Assembly: GCF_001465295.1 (NCBI RefSeq)
Contig: NZ_CP011034.1
Location: 2,220,001-2,252,000, forward strand
Source: Pseudoalteromonas translucida KMM 520
GTDB lineage: Bacteria; Pseudomonadota; Gammaproteobacteria; Enterobacterales; Alteromonadaceae
DNA: 32,000 nucleotides
Direction: 5' to 3'
Below are positions 2,033 to 30,491 of this stretch, in pieces; the first letter of the stretch is position 1; each line of letters starts with the position of its first letter. The notes below the pieces were generated by a model. It had not been told where the DNA came from and did no database searches. It was given only the letters and a program-made list of their open reading frames with translations. The position numbers and the translations under genes were made by a program.

Positions 2033-3046
2033 CTAAGGCAAAACTGTAAATTTAGTTAAACCTATAAGTTGCCCCGATTCTGTTACTACGTGCACCTGCC
2101 ATTTACCGACAGAATCAGTTGGAAAATTTACTTTATGGGTCCAGGCTCTATAACCTTGCTCTCGGCCACCACTTATATTTAATGTGATCCGATCTACTTC
2201 TTTATTGTTGTATAACCACACATGAAATATTTTTTCATTTAATCCTCTGGGCGCTTTAACAGCAGTCCACGTATATAACCCCTGATGATGTAGTGAATAA
2301 GAGTCTAATTGCTTAATATTACCAATAGGTTGGCGTTGCTCTAAATCAACCTCGTGCGATAAAGTAATATCGGTTAAACGCAAAGCCGCTGGCGGCACCC
2401 AACTACGTAGTTGCCATAAGCCAGCACTTAAAATACACAAAATTACCACCAATAAAGGAAATCGCCACCAGCGGGTATTGGGCATTAAGTTGCCTAAACT
2501 TGGAAGGGTAAAAATAACAGCAGTAACCAAAGCAATTGCTAAACTTTGGCTAGTGGTTACATTAAATAAAATAGGTAAAGTAACCAATATAACTACAAAC
2601 AATGCAAAGTTATGAAACACCGCAAATAGCATGCGATTTTTTGCTAACTTTTTATAATACAAAGGATCGATTACCGATATAACTGCACACATTATCATTA
2701 GCGCGGTAAAAATAGCTTGTGGATGATCCCACTGAGTTACCGCTAAAAAAAATGGCAAAGCAAAAAATAGGCTCTCTTGTTGCACCATTTGTAAAGCAAA
2801 GCGCATAAAGTTGGGCGATACCGCAACACCAAATCTTTGCTCTACTTTGTCACGCAACCAGTTATCAATAATTAACCATACCCAGCTCACTAGCAAAAAT
2901 ATGGCGATAAATTGCGAAAACGATTCTTTTCGCTCAACTAATACATAACTTGCCACACCTGAGCAAAATGCTATTACCGCTAATAACCCCGGCCGCTGTT
3001 GCATTGCAATTATAAATTTTGTTATTAAACTTTTAAAATAGTCCAT
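2033..3046 (-). CDS. Polytopic membrane protein with a soluble C-terminal domain (DUF2914-like)
   Basis: 337-aa ORF. The N-terminal two thirds contain multiple hydrophobic helices and the C-terminal ~110 aa are hydrophilic and beta-rich. The DUF assignment is from memory. Confidence 0.55.
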   Translation of the reverse strand: MDYFKSLITKFIIAMQQRPGLLAVIAFCSGVASYVLVERKESFSQFIAIFLLVSWVWLIIDNWLRDKVEQRFGVAVSPNFMRFALQMVQQESLFFALPFFLAVTQWDHPQAIFTALMIMCAVISVIDPLYYKKLAKNRMLFAVFHNFALFVVILVTLPILFNVTTSQSLAIALVTAVIFTLPSLGNLMPNTRWWRFPLLVVILCILSAGLWQLRSWVPPAALRLTDITLSHEVDLEQRQPIGNIKQLDSYSLHHQGLYTWTAVKAPRGLNEKIFHVWLYNNKEVDRITLNISGGREQGYRAWTHKVNFPTDSVGKWQVHVVTESGQLIGLTKFTVLP

Positions 3047-3187
3047 CTAATTTGGGGTCCGTACTAGTGTGCATGCTAAAGCGCTTAAAAACGTAAGCGC
3101 ATTATCTTAACGTAATTACCTGAACAACACATAAATAGCATAAAACCCCTCGGCTTATTAATAATACAATAATCGGTTAAGTAATGA

Positions 3188-4090
3188 CTATTTTGGTTGC
3201 TTTAAGTGGGTGCGCGAAATTTCTTCATTTACCCAGTGTAATAATTGTTTTATTGCCTTAGATAGCACCTGATTTTGCCGCACTATATAACCCAAACTAG
3301 TGGTTGGAAATTGCGGTAAAGCAGTCACTGTGGTGGTTAAATTGGCTTTAGAGCGCAGCGAAAACTCAGGTACAATTGCCACGCCAAAACCAGCTTCTGC
3401 CCAATCAATTTGTGCATCAACACTGCCCACTTCCATAACCCGATAACTCGGTAAATTTAAAGACGGTAGCGCATTATCTAATAGCTCACGGGTACGGGTA
3501 TCGTGGCCTAATAAAATTAATGTTGGCGGCTCAATTAGTACCATACTTTCATCGTTTTTTGCTTGCTCCCATAACGCTAAATTATTTCCCAGCGCACACC
3601 ACTTTATCTGCTGGAGTTCACTAAAATGCAGTGGCTCACTTTCTTTTTGAGCAATTACAAAGCCTAAATCGGCTTCTGCACTTTTAACCAGCGCCGATGC
3701 CTGTGACGAAGTGGTATTAAGCAAGGTAAAATCAATCCCCGGGAACTGGGTTTTAAACAGCTGAAAAGGCTCTATGAGTAACAAACGAGAAATAATATCA
3801 CTGGCTGCAATGGTGAGCGTGCCTTGGCTTAAGTTATTTATTGCATTGAGATCAGACTGACATACCTTCAATTCCCATAAGGTTTTTTGCCCAGACTGTA
3901 ATAAACGTAAACCCGCTTGGGTTAAACAAAATGGGTTACGCTCGATTAACTTTACCCGCGTCATTTTTTCTAACTGCTTAATATGCAAGCTCACATTAGG
4001 TTGCGTCATGTGCAGTGCACTTGCCGTTTTACCAAAATGCTTTAGCTCTGCTAATGTAACAAAGGTTTTTAACCAATGAATATCTAACAT
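3188..4090 (-). CDS. LysR-family transcriptional regulator
   Basis: N-terminal wHTH FGKTASALHMTQPNVSLHIKQLE followed by a ~200-aa substrate-binding domain. It is divergent from the purA-like gene. Confidence 0.9.
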   Translation of the reverse strand: MLDIHWLKTFVTLAELKHFGKTASALHMTQPNVSLHIKQLEKMTRVKLIERNPFCLTQAGLRLLQSGQKTLWELKVCQSDLNAINNLSQGTLTIAASDIISRLLLIEPFQLFKTQFPGIDFTLLNTTSSQASALVKSAEADLGFVIAQKESEPLHFSELQQIKWCALGNNLALWEQAKNDESMVLIEPPTLILLGHDTRTRELLDNALPSLNLPSYRVMEVGSVDAQIDWAEAGFGVAIVPEFSLRSKANLTTTVTALPQFPTTSLGYIVRQNQVLSKAIKQLLHWVNEEISRTHLKQPK

Positions 4091-4211: not shown

Positions 4212-5468
4212 ATGCCGTCAATTGTTGTTGTAGGTGCAAACTGGGGTGATGAAGGCAAAGGCCGCATCGTAGATTTTTTAGCTGAGAACGCATCAGCAAG
4301 CATTCGCTTTCAAGGTGGTAATAACGCCGGTCATACCGTTGTGAATGATTTTGGCACCTTTAAACTACATCAATTACCTAGCGGTATTTTTAATCCAGAT
4401 TGCATAGCAGTACTTGGCCCTGGCATGGTAATAAGCCCTAGTGCCTTAAGTGAAGAAATAGCCGAAGTTAAAGCCGCTGGCGTTAATGTAAAACTGTGTA
4501 TTTCCGATCGAGCCACTTTATGCCTGCCTTTACATGCTCTTGAAGACACCCTTGAGGAATTACGTTTAGGGGATGCTGCTTACGGCTCTACTCGTCAAGG
4601 TATTTCGCCAGCGTATGGCGACCGAGTAATGAAAAAAGGCATTTTAGTGGGTTGGTTAAATCAGCCTGACGTTTTACTAGAGCGTATTCAATTTATGCTT
4701 GATTGGAAAATGCCACAGCTAAAAGCCCTATACCCAAGTTGTGACTTTTCGCAAACAGCTGAAGAAATGACGCAGTGGTTACTCGATGTAACCGCACCTT
4801 GGCGTGCATTTATTTGTAATGTAACAGAGCCGTTAAAAGCACTACAAAAACAAAATGCTAATTTATTATTTGAAGCTCAGTTAGGTGCAGGTCGCGATTT
4901 AGTCTATGGCGAATACCCTTACACTACCTCTTCAAACGTAACGGCCGCTTATGCAGGCATAGGCAGCGGTTTACCTGCGCTTCGTCCTGAACGTGTTGTT
5001 GCGGTAGCAAAGTCGTTTAGCTCATCTGTAGGTACAGGTACTTTAGTTACTGCAATGGAAGAGCAAGACAATTTCCGTGAAAGCGCTAACGAATATGGCG
5101 CAGTAACTGGCCGTCCACGCGACATGGGCTACTTTGATGCAGTTGCCACGCGCAACGGTGTTGAGCTACAAGCTGCAACCGAAATTGCCTTAACCAAAAT
5201 TGATTGTTTATCGGGTATGAAAGATTTAAAAATCTGTGTTGCCTATGACGGCGATCATAGCGAAAACCCAATTTGGCCACAAACGGCTGCATTAAGCCCT
5301 GTATATGAAAATATGCAACCTTGGGATGAAGACATAACCGGTTGTCGTACCTTCGACAGTCTACCAATTGCAGCGCAACAATACGTTGAGCGCATTGAAG
5401 CGTTAATGGGCGTACCAATAACTATGGTGTCTGTTGGTCCTGAGCGCGAACAGATGATTATTCGCTAA
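4212..5468 (+). CDS. purA: Adenylosuccinate synthetase, short divergent paralogue (418 aa)
   Basis: P-loop GANWGDEGKGRIVD and the QGGNNAGHTV motif, then TTSS and GAVTGRPR motifs characteristic of PurA. RBS-like GGAG lies 8 nt upstream of the ATG. Confidence 0.85.
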   Translation: MPSIVVVGANWGDEGKGRIVDFLAENASASIRFQGGNNAGHTVVNDFGTFKLHQLPSGIFNPDCIAVLGPGMVISPSALSEEIAEVKAAGVNVKLCISDRATLCLPLHALEDTLEELRLGDAAYGSTRQGISPAYGDRVMKKGILVGWLNQPDVLLERIQFMLDWKMPQLKALYPSCDFSQTAEEMTQWLLDVTAPWRAFICNVTEPLKALQKQNANLLFEAQLGAGRDLVYGEYPYTTSSNVTAAYAGIGSGLPALRPERVVAVAKSFSSSVGTGTLVTAMEEQDNFRESANEYGAVTGRPRDMGYFDAVATRNGVELQAATEIALTKIDCLSGMKDLKICVAYDGDHSENPIWPQTAALSPVYENMQPWDEDITGCRTFDSLPIAAQQYVERIEALMGVPITMVSVGPEREQMIIR

Positions 5469-17085: not shown

Positions 17086-17105
17086 GTTTGCGCTGATTAA
17101 TTTAT

Positions 17106-17129
17106 GCCTGCATTTTTGTGGGCTTTTTT
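17106..17129 (+). terminator. Possible terminator of the peptidase gene
   Basis: gcctgca-tttt-tgtgggc (7 bp including 2 G-U pairs) followed by TTTTTT. Confidence 0.45.
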
Positions 17130-17172
17130 ATGTGCTAAGGAATATAGAATATAATTCATGATTGTATTTAAA

Positions 17173-17195
17173 CTTGTTATTGAGGAAATAACAAG
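17173..17195 (-). terminator. Possible terminator of the tRNA-Asp array
   Basis: cttgttat-tgaggaa-ataacaag 8-bp hairpin abutting the 3' end of the last tRNA. On the minus strand it is followed by UUUAAAU. Confidence 0.4.
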
Positions 17196-17272
17196 TGGCG
17201 GAGTGGACGGGACTCGAACCCGCGACCCCCGGCGTGACAGGCCGGTATTCTAACCAACTGAACTACCACTCC
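17196..17272 (-). tRNA. tRNA-Asp (GUC), copy 7 (promoter-distal)
   Basis: The reverse complement is GGAGTGGTAGTTCAGTTGGTTAGAATACCGGCCTGTCACGCCGGGGGTCGCGGGTTCGAGTCCCGTCCACTCCGCCA. It folds as a cloverleaf with anticodon stem CCGGC/GCCGG, loop CUGUCAC and an encoded CCA. It is close to E. coli tRNA-Asp. Confidence 0.97.
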
Positions 17273-17326
17273 GCAGTGGTATGTGCATGGGGTAATGCAC
17301 TTACTAATTTTGTTACTGATATCAAA

Positions 17327-17403
17327 TGGCGGAGTGGACGGGACTCGAACCCGCGACCCCCGGCGTGACAGGCCGGTATTCTAACCAACTGAACTACCAC
17401 TCC
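17327..17403 (-). tRNA. tRNA-Asp (GUC), copy 6
   Basis: Identical 77-nt sequence. Confidence 0.97.
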
Positions 17404-17452
17404 GCAGAGATATCATATTACTTTATTACTGTACTTGTATTACTTAATTTGT

Positions 17453-17529
17453 TGGCGGAGTGGACGGGACTCGAACCCGCGACCCCCGGCGTGACAGGCC
17501 GGTATTCTAACCAACTGAACTACCACTCC
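17453..17529 (-). tRNA. tRNA-Asp (GUC), copy 5
   Basis: Identical 77-nt sequence. Confidence 0.97.
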
Positions 17530-17562
17530 AGCGTATATTTAAACTGTTATCTTTTTTCTTAT

Positions 17563-17639
17563 TGGCGGAGTGGACGGGACTCGAACCCGCGACCCCCGGC
17601 GTGACAGGCCGGTATTCTAACCAACTGAACTACCACTCC
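17563..17639 (-). tRNA. tRNA-Asp (GUC), copy 4
   Basis: Identical 77-nt sequence. Confidence 0.97.
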
Positions 17640-17677
17640 AGCATACAAATTTTATACTATAACAATGTTTAAATAGT

Positions 17678-17754
17678 TGGCGGAGTGGACGGGACTCGAA
17701 CCCGCGACCCCCGGCGTGACAGGCCGGTATTCTAACCAACTGAACTACCACTCC
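17678..17754 (-). tRNA. tRNA-Asp (GUC), copy 3
   Basis: Identical 77-nt sequence. Confidence 0.97.
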
Positions 17755-17795
17755 AGAATAAGAATATGTTTTACAACCATATGTTGTGTAAGCGT

Positions 17796-17872
17796 TGGCG
17801 GAGTGGACGGGACTCGAACCCGCGACCCCCGGCGTGACAGGCCGGTATTCTAACCAACTGAACTACCACTCC
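17796..17872 (-). tRNA. tRNA-Asp (GUC), copy 2
   Basis: Identical 77-nt sequence. Confidence 0.97.
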
Positions 17873-17898
17873 AGTTTTGCTTACAAGTTTTCGAAAAT

Positions 17899-17975
17899 TG
17901 GCGGAGTGGACGGGACTCGAACCCGCGACCCCCGGCGTGACAGGCCGGTATTCTAACCAACTGAACTACCACTCC
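17899..17975 (-). tRNA. tRNA-Asp (GUC), copy 1 (promoter-proximal)
   Basis: Identical 77-nt sequence. Confidence 0.97.
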
Positions 17976-18017
17976 ACATTTTCGTTGCTGTTTGAGTCTC
18001 CCCTGACAGCGGCGTGA

Positions 18018-18046
18018 ATAATACGAACCAGCCCCTATTTCGTCAA
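18018..18046 (-). promoter_or_regulatory. Sigma70 promoter of the tRNA-Asp array with a GC-rich discriminator
   Basis: The minus strand reads cccTTGACGaaataggggctggttcgTATTATtcacgccgc. The -35 TTGACG is at 18046-18041, the spacer is 17 nt, and the -10 TATTAT is at 18023-18018. A GC-rich discriminator follows and an A/T-rich UP-like tract (aaaaaacctaaataaaagcgaaaaa) lies upstream. Confidence 0.7.
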
Positions 18047-18073
18047 GGGCTTTTTCGCTTTTATTTAGGTTTT

Positions 18074-26112: not shown

Positions 26113-26556
26113 TTATAACTTACCTAACCAAGTTGTTAGCCAAGGCTCGACAACTGGCCAAGGCTCAAAGTCTTCGCAGGCATCAACTTCTAAGCGGTTA
26201 CCAACAGGCTTAGCTTGTAAGTCACGTAATAATTCATCAAAGCTGCGCCCTGCACCACAAAAGGTGTCGCCGTAGCTTCTGTCGCCCATGGCAATAATTC
26301 CAAATGGCTTGTCGGTTAACATAGGAAAAGTACTATTTAACTGATTATAAAAATCAGCTAAGTTATCAGGTACATCGCCTTGACCGGTTGTTGAGGTAAT
26401 AATTAAAATATGTGACGCACTTTGAATGTCGCTCAACACTGGCTCATTAAATACCGTAACGCCATGCCCCGCTTGCTCTATTGTTGTGGCTACTTCGTCA
26501 CTTAAACGCTCTGCACCGCCATATACGCTGCCTACAAAAATACTAATATGTGCCAT
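26113..26556 (-). CDS. yqcA: Flavodoxin (YqcA/MioC-like)
   Basis: 147 aa. The FMN loop is STTGQGDVPDN, with IFVGSVYGGAE at the N-terminus. It lies 3 nt downstream of truC, as in the E. coli yqcC-truC-yqcA cluster. Confidence 0.85.
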   Translation of the reverse strand: MAHISIFVGSVYGGAERLSDEVATTIEQAGHGVTVFNEPVLSDIQSASHILIITSTTGQGDVPDNLADFYNQLNSTFPMLTDKPFGIIAMGDRSYGDTFCGAGRSFDELLRDLQAKPVGNRLEVDACEDFEPWPVVEPWLTTWLGKL

Positions 26557-26559
26557 TAA

Positions 26560-27324
26560 TTAATAATCCTTTTCTTCATCTGGCCAACCTAGTTGTTTGC
26601 AAATGCTGAGCATTGCATCACCTAGTGGCGCTTTAATTTTTATTGGTTCATTACTATAAGGGTGCACAAAGCTAAGCTCAGTTGCAAATAACATTAATCT
26701 GCGCAGCTCAAAATGCTCCCTAAAAAATTGATTATGCTGATTATCGCCATGGTTTACATCGCCAATGATAGGCAGTGATAAATGCTTTAAATGCCGACGA
26801 ATTTGATGTTTACGCCCCGTTTTAGGAAAACACTCAACAAGGGAGTAGCGCACTGTAGGGTACTTGCCAATAGGAATGGGTAAGGCTGCTTGGTATAAGC
26901 AATTAAACTGAGTTTGCGCTTCTTGTGGCGCTTTGTCTTGATCGGCAAACTTATCTGCTATTTTGTCCAGCTCTTCTTTTAGTGGTTTATCTAAAAATAC
27001 CGACTCAGGTGCAAAACCACGTACTAAGGCTAAATAGCGTTTACTCATAGTGCCTTCAATAAATAACTGATTCATATCGCGGGCAGCTTCTGAACTTAGC
27101 GCAAACAGTAACACCCCCGATGTGGGTCTATCGAGCCTATGTACCGGAAAAACATGCTGCCCAAGTTGATCGCGCAGCATTTGCATAGCAAACTGGGTTT
27201 CGTGCTTATCTAAAAACGAGCGATGCACTAATAAGCCTGAAGGTTTATCTATGGCTACGTAGTTTTCATCCTGATACAAAATAGTCAGTTCGCCATACTC
27301 AATTGGTGCTGGGCGCTCACTCAT
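26560..27324 (-). CDS. truC: tRNA pseudouridine(65) synthase
   Basis: RluA-family catalytic motif HRLDRPTSGVLLFA. 254 aa. The gene order matches yqcC and yqcA. Confidence 0.85.
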   Translation of the reverse strand: MSERPAPIEYGELTILYQDENYVAIDKPSGLLVHRSFLDKHETQFAMQMLRDQLGQHVFPVHRLDRPTSGVLLFALSSEAARDMNQLFIEGTMSKRYLALVRGFAPESVFLDKPLKEELDKIADKFADQDKAPQEAQTQFNCLYQAALPIPIGKYPTVRYSLVECFPKTGRKHQIRRHLKHLSLPIIGDVNHGDNQHNQFFREHFELRRLMLFATELSFVHPYSNEPIKIKAPLGDAMLSICKQLGWPDEEKDY

Positions 27325-27637
27325 TTGGCTCTCCTAAAAAGGCATCAAGGGCTGTTAACAGAGTAATAATTTCACCGCTGCCTTTTTTACTCGCAAGCGT
27401 CATTTGTGCCATAGGAGCAATTGCAAAGTTGCGCGGCAATGGCTGCTCGTCAATAATTAGTTGCTCAAATTTTTTAATAAATACAAACTGTAACCACTGC
27501 TCAAACGCCATGGTGTCGTGGCAAAAAGGCACGTTTGACTGTAATGCTTCTGCTGCTATTGGCTCATTTTGCCAAAGCTGATGCTTTTTTAAAAGTGCGC
27601 TTAACTGCACTAAATAAGCTTGAGTTTGCTGGTACAT
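27317..27637 (-). CDS. yqcC: YqcC-like protein (DUF446)
   Basis: I chose the internal ATG at 27637, preceded by AGAGGG. This gives a 106-aa product, MYQQTQAYLVQLSALLKKHQLWQ...FEQWLQFVFI. The longer 147-aa ORF adds a low-complexity extension. The gene overlaps the truC start by 8 nt. Confidence 0.7.
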   Translation of the reverse strand: MYQQTQAYLVQLSALLKKHQLWQNEPIAAEALQSNVPFCHDTMAFEQWLQFVFIKKFEQLIIDEQPLPRNFAIAPMAQMTLASKKGSGEIITLLTALDAFLGEPNE

Positions 27638-27847
27638 AACCGCCCTCTTAAAACTAGATGAAGTAATAATACCATTTGTATTTATTAAGAGGGAAATTAT
27701 AGTAACTGAAAGTACACGCTTAATATTACCCCCGCTTGCTCGGTTATTTAGCAAAATCAAAACTCAAACTCTATAACCGCGGTTCCCTCAATCTTTGCTA
27801 TGGCGTATAATTGACGCAATTTTGTAGTAAAAACAATTGAGAAAACG

Positions 27848-28876
27848 ATGAGTAAGCAAATAGCGACATTAGGGCAGCTTTTAGATAATGCAGGTACTCA
27901 GTGGCGCGCGTTTGATATTGGTAGGCACATAACTAAGCTTGATAAAAAGCAATTTTTAGATATAGAGCAAGCACAAGTCCCTTACCCATATCCGCTTGCT
28001 GGTCATGCATGGTTAGCTATTCAGTTTTGGGATAGTAAAGCGAGTAAAGAACCTTATGTATGGTTTTTAAAATTTCCAGTTGATGAGCAAAGCAAATTGG
28101 TGAGTGCGAGTCGCGATCACTTTGCCGACATGGTAATTGAAGCACTCGGCACACAGCTTACCGGTGAGCAAGCCGACGGTAAACTTGATAACAACCCTTA
28201 TGTTTTTACACCAAATGCCAATAAATTAGCAGCCTTTAATGCGCAACTTAAAGTATTATTAAAGCAACCTGCATCACAGTATTACGAGCATACGCAGTTG
28301 TACTTTAGTGGCAAGCTGGGTTTTGAAAATTGGCAAAGTGTGGCACTACAAGGCATTGCCGATTTTGCACTGCGCCTAGATAATGAGACTAACTTAGTTG
28401 ATATACAAAAAGCCTGGCCTCATTTGCCCGCTGAGGTATTACAGCCCCTTAGCGCCATGCTTGAGCATGTAGAAATACCGCCCTCATTTAGCCAGTTACT
28501 AGTAGAGTACGGCCAAGCAGCTATAAAAAATAACGACCCGTTTGCTGTTACAGTAGCGCTACGCTCGCTTTCTAAAGCGCAAGCGCAAGGCTTAACCGCT
28601 CAATTAGTCGATAGCGTATTAACTTCATCTGTTAATCAAGATGCTGATGTACTGCTCACTATTGCTGGGCGTTGCTTTAAACAACTAGAAGACCCTGAGC
28701 GCTTACATGTGTTTATGGATAACTGTGCGCATCATCAACAAATTACTGAACTATTTGTGAGTATTTTTGCTGATTTAGTTGCAATACCCACTATTCGCCC
28801 GCATTTATTAGGCTTATTACGTAAAGAAAATCGTAGCGAAACCCTCGCGCGTGCAATTGGAAGGTTATTCTCTTAA
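27848..28876 (+). CDS. DUF3549-like protein of unknown function
   Basis: 342-aa ORF with no recognisable catalytic motif. The family name is from memory. Confidence 0.55.
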   Translation: MSKQIATLGQLLDNAGTQWRAFDIGRHITKLDKKQFLDIEQAQVPYPYPLAGHAWLAIQFWDSKASKEPYVWFLKFPVDEQSKLVSASRDHFADMVIEALGTQLTGEQADGKLDNNPYVFTPNANKLAAFNAQLKVLLKQPASQYYEHTQLYFSGKLGFENWQSVALQGIADFALRLDNETNLVDIQKAWPHLPAEVLQPLSAMLEHVEIPPSFSQLLVEYGQAAIKNNDPFAVTVALRSLSKAQAQGLTAQLVDSVLTSSVNQDADVLLTIAGRCFKQLEDPERLHVFMDNCAHHQQITELFVSIFADLVAIPTIRPHLLGLLRKENRSETLARAIGRLFS

Positions 28877-29176
28877 ATGGCAAGTTTATGGACGTTCATA
28901 CTGATTGGTAGTGTAATTTACTTATTTTGGCTAAACCGAAAAGTAGCCGAGGCGGCGAACGTTCATGCTAAACGCCAAAGCGAACAACTGCAGGTGCAAT
29001 TAATGAGCGTTGCCTGTAGTAAACGCCGCTTTGGCTTTTTAAAAAGTGGTAAACCTGGAGTGAAAAGCGAATTTATTTTTGAGTTTTCAAGTGATGGCGA
29101 AAATGCCTATCAGGGAATACTGATCATGGAAAATGAGTATTTAAAAAGTGTGGTTATTCCACCGCATAAAATATAA
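28877..29176 (+). CDS. DUF3301-like small membrane protein
   Basis: 99 aa. N-terminal TM helix LWTFILIGSVIYLFWL. The ATG immediately follows the upstream TAA (taaATG), which suggests translational coupling. Confidence 0.55.
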   Translation: MASLWTFILIGSVIYLFWLNRKVAEAANVHAKRQSEQLQVQLMSVACSKRRFGFLKSGKPGVKSEFIFEFSSDGENAYQGILIMENEYLKSVVIPPHKI

Positions 29177-29240
29177 CCTTTATACTGCGCTAAAAGTTTA
29201 ATTTAGGGTAAGGGTAAATTAAAAAAGTGAGTAAAACACA

Positions 29241-29269
29241 AAAAACTAAGGCGTAACTAAAGTTACGCC
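29241..29269 (-). terminator. Rho-independent terminator of the GGA-repeat sRNA
   Basis: The minus strand reads GGCGUAAC-UUUA-GUUACGCC (29269-29250) followed by UUAGUUUUUUG. The + strand has no T-run after the hairpin, so it is oriented for a minus-strand transcript. Confidence 0.8.
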
Positions 29270-29610
29270 CCAATTGACAAACATCCTGTTAGGTATCCTT
29301 TACCTGTGTAATCCGTATTATCATCCTCTGAACGAGCAAACAACCTTGTTCACCCTCACATTGCATCCTGCAATATCCTCTTGCCACCTTGGCTGTCCTG
29401 CGTAAACTAACGCTCCGGCTACTTCCTGTAGCACCATCCTTGATTATCCATTAGTAGCTCCAGCCACTTAAGCGCATCATGCACTTTCCTGTTCATCCTT
29501 GCGTCCGTGTTAACTTGTCCGTTTTGCTTCTTGCTAGCGTCTGCTATGTTGCCTACTTCCTTATCCTTGGCAATCACTCAATCATTGAGCTGTGTCGTCT
29601 TGACAAAGTA
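29241..29610 (-). ncRNA. csrB: CsrB/RsmB-class CsrA-sequestering sRNA candidate (5' end approximate)
   Basis: There are 18 GGA on the minus strand between 29284 and 29566, and 0 GGA on the plus strand over the same span. Twelve are AGGA and eight are AGGAU, including CAGGAUG at 29282-29288 and 29364-29370. Several sit in hairpin loops: AGGUA-AAGGA-UACCU (29291-29305), UUGC-AGGAU-GCAA (29361-29373) and GCUAC-AGGAA-GUAGC (29418-29432). No ORF of 60 aa or more is present. A terminator lies at the 3' end and a GacA-like box lies upstream. Confidence 0.8.
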
Positions 29611-29770
29611 AAGTTTAAAGCAAATGGCTAGTAGGTATAGTACCTAGCTGTTAATTATTAAATGGCATTTATATTAAAAAACAAAAATAATAAAAATAAC
29701 CTTTAATATCAATCAAATAGGTAATAAAAAACTATTTCCACGCAATTTAAACTGACAACTCGCACAGCGA

Positions 29771-29788
29771 TGTAAGATATATCTCACG
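29771..29788. promoter_or_regulatory. GacA/UvrY/VarA-type upstream activating palindrome
   Basis: TGTAAGatatatCTCACG compared with the consensus TGTAAG-N6-CTTACA, or the enteric/vibrio variant TGTGAG-N6-CTCACA. The left half is perfect and the right half matches 5/6 to the CTCACA variant. It lies ~165 bp upstream of the predicted sRNA start, across an A/T-rich tract. Confidence 0.55.
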
Positions 29789-29849
29789 GTCATATATCCG
29801 TTTTGGGATATTAACCACCAAGACAGGCTACCTTTAACCTAAATTAAAT

Positions 29850-30491
29850 TTAGTTTTTTGACTTAAATAACAATTCGCCCGCAACCTTATTAAAAGTAAG
29901 CTGCTTAAAGCTTTCAAACCCTTCGGTTTTAAAAAACTGAGTATGCTCTTTGCGCGTTACAAACACCGCCATACCTGCAGACTCAGCATTAGATTGAACT
30001 AGGTCATTTAGGCCTCTTAATAAATAACGCCCAAATCCTTGGCCATGAAAATGCGGATCGACCGCAATAAAAGCTAAAAAATAGTAGTTGCCCTGCTGCT
30101 GTAGTGCATCTCTAATTGTTTGCTCTTTATCTATTAATTGATTGGTTTGTAAGTAACCAGCACTTAACATTAGCTTTAAGCGCCAATGCCAATAACGCTG
30201 CGCCTGTAATTGGCTGTTTGATTCGAACACGCAGGCAACGGCTTTAAGTTTGTCGTTACGATATAAACCAATAAGTGGCTGTTTCTCTTGCCAAAAGCTA
30301 CTTAGCTCTTCGCGAATTAATGACCGAAGCTTTTTTTCGTAGGCCGATTTACTCTCTTGCTCATAATTGAGCATAGTTTGTAAAATAGGATCGTCGTGGT
30401 ACGCCTGATAAATTAAACTCGCGGCAATACTTATATCTTCTGCGGCTAAATACTGTACGCTAAATGTATCGGCTTGGGTGGTCACAGTCAT
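29850..30491 (-). CDS. GNAT-family N-acetyltransferase
   Basis: 213 aa. Acetyl-CoA-binding motif A, FIAVDPHFHGQGFGRYLLRGL. Confidence 0.8.
   Translation of the reverse strand: MTVTTQADTFSVQYLAAEDISIAASLIYQAYHDDPILQTMLNYEQESKSAYEKKLRSLIREELSSFWQEKQPLIGLYRNDKLKAVACVFESNSQLQAQRYWHWRLKLMLSAGYLQTNQLIDKEQTIRDALQQQGNYYFLAFIAVDPHFHGQGFGRYLLRGLNDLVQSNAESAGMAVFVTRKEHTQFFKTEGFESFKQLTFNKVAGELLFKSKN

Follow-up and report, generated by a model that had tools for sequence, protein, structure and literature searches.

A CsrA dimer bridges two GGA motifs of its decoy RNA, as has been established for CsrB and RsmZ. In Pseudoalteromonas, three Csr small RNAs (sRNAs) were described: Pf1 of P. fuliginea BSW20308 is a CsrB-family sRNA (PMC9927453, Microbiol Spectr 2023), and Pf2 and Pf3 are further Csr sRNAs of the same strain, located between other genes (PMC11882849, Commun Biol 2025). 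Promoter activity of a fragment designated D4-12 was reported for Pf1 (PMC9927453). Furthermore, Pf1 counteracts the repression of glycogen synthesis by CsrA in a heterologous assay in E. coli, it was recovered in the CsrA targetome by RNA immunoprecipitation sequencing (RIP-seq), its deletion changes motility, carbon metabolism, biofilm and expression of the type VI secretion system (T6SS), and 252-260 Pseudoalteromonas sequences or genomes were reported to contain sequences like Pf1 (PMC9927453, PMC11882849). Previously, csrB1, csrB2 and csrC had been predicted in P. haloplanktis by Kulkarni et al. 2006 (PMC1488887). The window studied here, a 32,000-nt stretch of the genome of Pseudoalteromonas translucida KMM 520, contains on its minus strand at 29604-29240 an element that is very probably a CsrB-class regulatory RNA of ~365 nt and the orthologue of Pf1. 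Its sequence anatomy, conservation, structural covariation, synteny and Pf1 orthology are established by the present analysis. A first-pass annotation, made by a model from the letters of this DNA, had proposed a CsrB/RsmB-class CsrA sponge at this place, and the proposal agrees with every sequence-level feature of the class as well as with the orthology to Pf1. The RNA family is already known in the genus (Pf1, CsrB class), and the window adds a further Pseudoalteromonas species to it.

The sRNA gene (29240..29604, minus strand, 5' end inferred) is ~365 nt long and was delineated by the GGA counts, the sub-threshold Rfam match to CsrB, the alignment with Pf1 and the orthologues. Counting of motifs on the minus strand of 29241-29610 gave 18 GGA, of which 12 are AGGA and 8 are AGGAU, while the plus strand of the same interval holds 0 GGA. 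When TCC was counted on the plus strand in 370-nt windows along the whole 32 kb, the mean was 2.0 (standard deviation 1.9), and the sole maximum, 18, was found at 29241-29610. The first-pass annotation had reported the 18 TCC, the confinement of GGA to the minus strand, and the 12 AGGA and 8 AGGAU; the recount returned the same numbers at a peak that is unique in the window. Of the "several" CAGGAUG motifs that it mentioned, the motif is present but the exact copies number just two. On its statement that base composition predicts only a few GGA, mononucleotide shuffles of the G/A-rich strand gave 10.1 +/- 2.6, and at least 18 GGA were reached in 27 of 10,000. The excess is thus in part compositional; composition does not account for the asymmetry between the strands, and the peak is real. 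The locus is intergenic, lying between a DUF3301 gene on the plus strand and a GNAT gene on the minus strand in a gap of 673 bp (29177-29849) without open reading frames (ORFs) of 90 aa or more. This gap had been called the largest ORF-free stretch of the window; the absence of such ORFs was confirmed, but the interval 17086-18073 around a tRNA array is longer, with a single spurious ORF inside. Since the downstream genes converge on the RNA, the region is no 5' untranslated region.

Identity with Pf1 was traced through the sequence published for its promoter and 5' part (Data Set S1), which is 81% identical to the window over 270 nt, within the range of 73.5-100% published for the Pf1 family (PMC9927453). 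Over 70 nt, this published sequence has an exact copy in P. fuliginea KMM 216 (locus L006), downstream of the DUF3549 and DUF3301 genes as in the window, and the published Pf1 GacA box CGTGAGACATCTCTTACA has one exact occurrence among the loci, at L006 5498-5515 on the minus strand, the site equivalent to the box of the window. By BLAST, the window region and the KMM 216 locus are 75.5-81% identical. Pf1 and the window RNA share the genus, the locus downstream of the DUF3549-DUF3301 pair, the 5' leader GTCAAGAnGACA, the terminator and the dense GGA, and their GacA boxes are of one type (CGTGAGA.AT.TCTTACA). They differ in size, with ~365 nt and 18 GGA in the window versus ~470 nt and 25 GGA in the P. 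fuliginea orthologue, in the number of copies of a 110-nt module (one in the window, two in Pf1), and in the distance from the upstream activating sequence (UAS) to the 5' end (184 nt in the window, 176 nt in Pf1). A second described counterpart is csrB1 of P. haloplanktis TAC125 (CSRNA_FIND; PMC1488887), which is from the same genus, shows the same flanking pattern (-> <- <-) and was classed as csrB by an upstream 18-bp site. Its flanking genes are PSHAa1973 and PSHAa1975, and it is probably the same locus as that of the window RNA; a literature search on the locus tags PSHAa1973/1975, meant to tie csrB1 to the locus, returned only the 2006 paper.

Conservation was followed through the genus. 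A search with the neighbouring DUF3549 protein recovered 26 loci, all from Pseudoalteromonas, at 77-87% identity, and BLAST of the intergenic region matched all 26 in the same position and orientation. When delimited by the conserved 5' leader and the conserved terminator, 22 orthologous RNAs of 334-582 nt were obtained, with 18-30 GGA and 0-1 TCC each. Identity across species was 0.87 at GGA nucleotides versus 0.71 at the others, and 0.87 was reached by 14 of 10,000 random triplet sets; hence the 22 orthologues display GGA motifs that are conserved while the linkers drift, the outcome for which the first-pass annotation had suggested a cross-genome comparison. On a shorter time scale, an exact look-up of the DUF3301 protein gave five ~97%-identical strains (that of the DUF3549 protein returned no record). 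These five carry 3-9 substitutions in the RNA, 0 of them inside a GGA, versus 17-18 in the 226 nt upstream, so that among close relatives the RNA evolved ~4-fold slower than its upstream spacer. The promoter, the UAS and the terminator of the RNA are conserved across the genus.

The predicted fold of the whole RNA consists of ~17 short hairpins. In an alignment of 14 species, 83% of cells were paired, versus 30-43% with the partners slid by 1-3 columns, and compensatory changes were seen at 24 pairs versus 3-10 in the slid controls; the observed values were reached in 0 of 500 shuffles. The probability of being unpaired was 0.86 for GGA nucleotides in the window RNA versus 0.39 for the others, GGA being the highest of the frequent trinucleotides, and 0.70-0.82 versus 0.37-0.42 in 21 orthologues. 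The folding check proposed in the first pass thus yielded GGA enriched in loops, in hairpins that are backed by covariation. The three loop-GGA hairpins that had been named there, at 29291-29305, 29361-29373 and 29418-29432, are all present in the sequence and recur in a span-limited fold. At 29291..29305 the minus strand reads AGGUA[AAGGA]UACCU, with its GGA conserved in 13 of 13 orthologues. The hairpin AUAUUGCA[GGA]UGCAAUGU at 29358..29376, with the core UUGC[AGGAU]GCAA (29373-29361), has 96% of cells paired across orthologues and aligns with high posterior probability to one of the CAGGAUG hairpins in Rfam's model of CsrB. Two neighbouring GGA-loop hairpins, AUCA[AGGA]UGGU and GCUAC[AGGAA]GUAGC, occupy 29418..29444; the latter (29432-29418) has compensatory changes in 5 of 5 pairs (AU<->GC in 6 sequences, UA<->CG in 5) and 98.5% of cells paired. 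A further hairpin in the predicted folds, UUGCC[AAGGAUAAGGAAGUA]GGCAA at 29549..29573, presents two GGA in a single loop, both conserved in 13 of 13 orthologues and unpaired with a probability of at least 0.97. At the 3' end, a terminator scan found the orientation-specific intrinsic terminator that the first pass had described: on the minus strand, a stem of 14 pairs at 29275-29244 with the core GGGGCGUAAC-UUUA-GUUACGCC is followed by a U-run to 29240. This hairpin (29244..29275) is the sole terminator-like site in 29100-29900. It varies little or not at all among 14 aligned orthologues, with 98.5% of cells paired.

Upstream of the RNA, a consensus scan found a palindromic 18-bp upstream activating box of the GacA/UvrY type, CGTGAGATATATCTTACA, at 29771..29788 on the minus strand. 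Nothing else in the 32 kb fits TGTRAGN6CTYACA with at most one mismatch. From the start of the box to the inferred 5' end, the distance is 184 nt in the window and 176 nt in 19 of the 22 orthologues, the difference being due to a 9-nt T-rich insertion that the ~97%-identical relatives share. This insertion lies in the spacer between box and leader (window 29605-29788, alignment A2 columns 147-155). In E. coli, the corresponding distance between the box TGTGAGAGATCTCTTACA and the 5' end annotated for csrB is 191 nt, so the far-upstream architecture is the same in both. The core promoter at 29597..29624 on the minus strand is the counterpart of the minimal active Pf1 promoter D4-12 (TTTGCTTTAAACTTTACTTTGTCAAGAA), with 27 of 28 positions matching and one differing; these 28 nt of Pf1 do not include the GacA box. 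Within it, TAAACT at 29617-29612 is the putative -10 hexamer; the corresponding columns of the other orthologues read TAGAAT, TATTAT or TAGTAT, with T1, A2 and T6 constant, as would suit a -10 element. The window promoter has no good -35, as expected of an activator-dependent promoter. Transcription would start near G29604, 7 nt downstream of the hexamer. This first base pairs with position 11, and in 4 of 14 sequences the pair has covaried from GC to AU, which places 29604 within the transcript. A scan of the spacer between UAS and promoter for IHF sites gave just two overlapping one-mismatch matches, which were judged too weak to claim.

The Pseudomonas RNAs RsmY, RsmZ and RsmX, like the several copies of CsrB in Vibrio, have the mode of action proposed for the window RNA, that of a multi-GGA decoy for CsrA/RsmA, as well as GacA-box-dependent promoters, and all fall in Rfam clan CL00106. 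The three Pseudomonas RNAs are much shorter (~110-130 nt), with fewer GGA; they lack synteny to the window RNA and are not its best Rfam match. Closer is E. coli CsrB, annotated at 369 nt with 22 GGA next to yqcC, compared with 365 nt and 18 GGA in the window, a similarity of length and motif count that the first pass had pointed out correctly. The probability of being unpaired is also alike, 0.80 for GGA versus 0.36 for other nucleotides in E. coli CsrB and 0.86 versus 0.39 in the window RNA, and both RNAs end in an intrinsic terminator, are preceded by a distant 18-bp UvrY/GacA box and lie on the same strand as yqcA-truC-yqcC. By the properties that Kulkarni et al. 2006 (PMC1488887) used to recognise the CsrB class, namely an intergenic location, density of AGGA/ARGGA, a Rho-independent terminator, GGA in loops and an 18-bp upstream site, the window RNA belongs to it, being intergenic, dense in GGA on one strand, terminated, with unpaired GGA and an upstream box.

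The gene order points the same way. In the window, a yqcA-like flavodoxin gene (26113-26556), truC (26560-27324) and yqcC/DUF446 (27317-27760), all identified by NCBIfam/Pfam, lie on the minus strand, followed by DUF3549 (27848-28876) and DUF3301 (28877-29176), Pfam-assigned genes on the plus strand that converge on the RNA terminator; upstream of the RNA and on its strand lies a gene for a GNAT-family acetyltransferase (29850..30491, minus strand, Pfam). Read along the minus strand, the order is GNAT, RNA, the plus-strand DUF3301 and DUF3549, yqcC, truC and flavodoxin, compared with syd, csrB, yqcC, truC and yqcA in E. coli. The yqcA-truC-yqcC order common to both supports positional orthology with enterobacterial csrB. 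E. coli csrB adjoins yqcC, whereas the window RNA is set apart from it by DUF3549 and DUF3301, and the upstream neighbour is the GNAT gene instead of syd; the partial synteny claimed in the first pass, with yqcC two genes away, was therefore confirmed as to order, with two inserted genes. Since the primary sequence is not alignable, the case for homology to enterobacterial CsrB is made by gene order, upstream box and architecture. A blastn search with the intergenic region against E. coli genomes gave nothing meaningful.

Rfam models, which had been suggested as a test, pointed in the right direction but below threshold. In E-value mode on an 801-nt slice, the best match was CsrB (RF00018) at 29239-29529 (minus strand), spanning the complete model, with 30 bits and an E-value of 2.2e-6; the terminator and several CAGGAUG hairpins aligned to the model with high posterior probability. 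At gathering thresholds, only tRNAs were found in the window (seven) and in 15 orthologous loci. In seven orthologous loci, E-value mode gave only two weak CsrC matches, at L021 4852-5107(-) with 34.8 bits and at L012 4953-5131(-) with 23.8 bits; a CsrB match like that of the 801-nt slice was probably masked there by the stricter filters that apply to longer input. Evidently the existing clan models recognise only generic GGA-hairpin features of the Pf1 family, and the lack of a model at threshold is probably why the gene is unannotated.

A number of points weigh against the assignment as a CsrB-class orthologue of Pf1. The CsrB score of 30 bits falls short of the gathering score of 71 bits, all other Rfam families likewise stay below theirs here, and in some orthologues the best sub-threshold match is CsrC rather than CsrB. 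An nhmmer profile of 14 Pseudoalteromonas RNAs searched against the E. coli csrB locus gave its sole match inside csrB, at a non-significant E-value of 0.56. Neither csrA nor gacA lies within the 32-kb window. The Pf1 papers mapped no transcription start, and GacA binding to the Pf1 box is a proposal there; for the window orthologue, the start of transcription, the dependence on GacA and the binding of CsrA are putative. The CsrC matches of two orthologues, together with the existence of three Csr sRNAs in Pseudoalteromonas, would suit a different CsrA-binding paralogue, like Pf2, Pf3 or CsrC, in place of a Pf1/CsrB orthologue. This is very improbable, as the Pf1 promoter, 5' sequence and GacA box map to this very locus in P. 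fuliginea KMM 216, which is matched by the 81% identity to the window, while Pf2 and Pf3 have different flanking genes and the synteny is with E. coli csrB and not with csrC, which is found at yihA/yihI.

The strand is also rich in G+A, so that ~10 GGA are expected already from mononucleotide shuffles, and on this ground the element could be read as a purine-rich spacer, or as the 3' end region of the convergent genes, whose GGA reflect composition and which gives no independent functional transcript. Such a reading is scarcely credible in view of GGA that are selectively conserved and unpaired, compensatory changes in the hairpins, a promoter, UAS and terminator of its own that are conserved across the genus, the ~4-fold slower evolution than the upstream spacer, and the expression and function of the P. 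fuliginea orthologue. The chance that the locus encodes a small protein is practically negligible: the ORF list does contain a 52-aa ORF with a GTG start at 29419-29577 on the minus strand, but it is not conserved, and the orthologues differ by indels whose lengths are no multiples of three. The small-ORF reading was rejected upon comparison of the 22 orthologues, whose longest ORFs differ in strand, frame, position and sequence.

On the assignment to the Pf1/CsrB class, a mechanism can be proposed by analogy. A response regulator of the GacS/GacA (BarA/UvrY) type would bind the box at 29788-29771, ~175 nt upstream, and activate a sigma-70 promoter with a weak -35. The transcript would begin near G29604 and end at the intrinsic terminator (29275-29240), and the folded RNA would consist of short hairpins and single-stranded linkers displaying the 18 GGA, mostly as AGGA/AGGAU. 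With each CsrA dimer binding two GGA motifs, a single RNA could sequester several dimers, and the sequestration would relieve CsrA control of target mRNAs, which in P. fuliginea concern motility, glycogen and carbon metabolism, biofilm and T6SS. In Pseudoalteromonas, motility, carbon storage, biofilm, T6SS and the response to temperature are under CsrA control, hence the locus of its presumed master antagonist is biologically important. The practical value lies in annotation: automated pipelines miss the gene, and the alignment and structure could seed an Rfam family.

Variation among orthologues was found in the number of copies of a 110-nt GGA-bearing module, identified by BLAST and Tandem Repeats Finder (TRF) in the orthologues. 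The module is present as a single copy in the window (29360..29469, approximately, minus strand), where it holds 8 of the 18 GGA. By BLAST, the window segment 29361-29489 was matched 2-3 times in L001, L003, L013 and other loci. TRF reported a period of 110 with 2.9 copies in L026 (4999-5321) and no repeat in the window. The orthologues fall into length classes of 334-365, 401-405, 470-472 and 579-582 nt, the larger steps being tandem copies of the module, with lengths of about 361-365, 470-472 and 579-582 nt for one, two and three copies, and each extra copy adds ~6 GGA. Copies therefore number one in the window (18 GGA), two in Pf1 (~25 GGA) and three in others (~30 GGA), with the UAS, promoter, 5' leader and terminator fixed throughout. 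No mention of this variation was found in the Pf papers PMC9927453 and PMC11882849. Tentatively, the CsrA-titrating capacity may have been tuned between Pseudoalteromonas species by gain and loss of the module, although the odds are somewhat against it. If the number of modules alters the strength of the sponge, evolution would have in it a simple dial for adjusting a global regulator.

Several observations concern the neighbourhood of the RNA and the rest of the window. In the DUF3549-DUF3301 pair, the stop of the first gene adjoins the start of the second, and its position between yqcC and the RNA is conserved in each of the 31 Pseudoalteromonas loci retrieved; in E. coli nothing lies between yqcC and csrB, and both DUF3549 and DUF3301 are of unknown function. 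The 147-aa yqcC/DUF446 ORF with a TTG start (27317-27760, minus strand) is probably too long, as the Pfam match covers residues 46-140 and the product called in close relatives has 106 aa. On the other side of the RNA, the homology of a 97.5%-identical strain (L030, ENA ERZ15271651 contig_510, 2460-3300) ends ~48 nt upstream of the GacA box, that is, from about window position 29836 onward. There, a gene for an IS110-family transposase takes the place of the GNAT gene of the window, and the RNA and box are intact. Farther away, seven tandem tRNA genes lie at 17199-17975 on the minus strand, at 70.4 bits each (Rfam) and ~110-130 nt apart. Three aligned copies are identical with the anticodon GUC (Asp), and a spurious 92-aa ORF (17326-17604, plus strand) overlaps the array. 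Finally, the gene at 4212-5468 on the plus strand, beside a LysR-type regulator, encodes an adenylosuccinate-synthase-like protein that scored 403.1 bits against an NCBIfam equivalog cut-off of 402 bits, and it may be a divergent purA paralogue.

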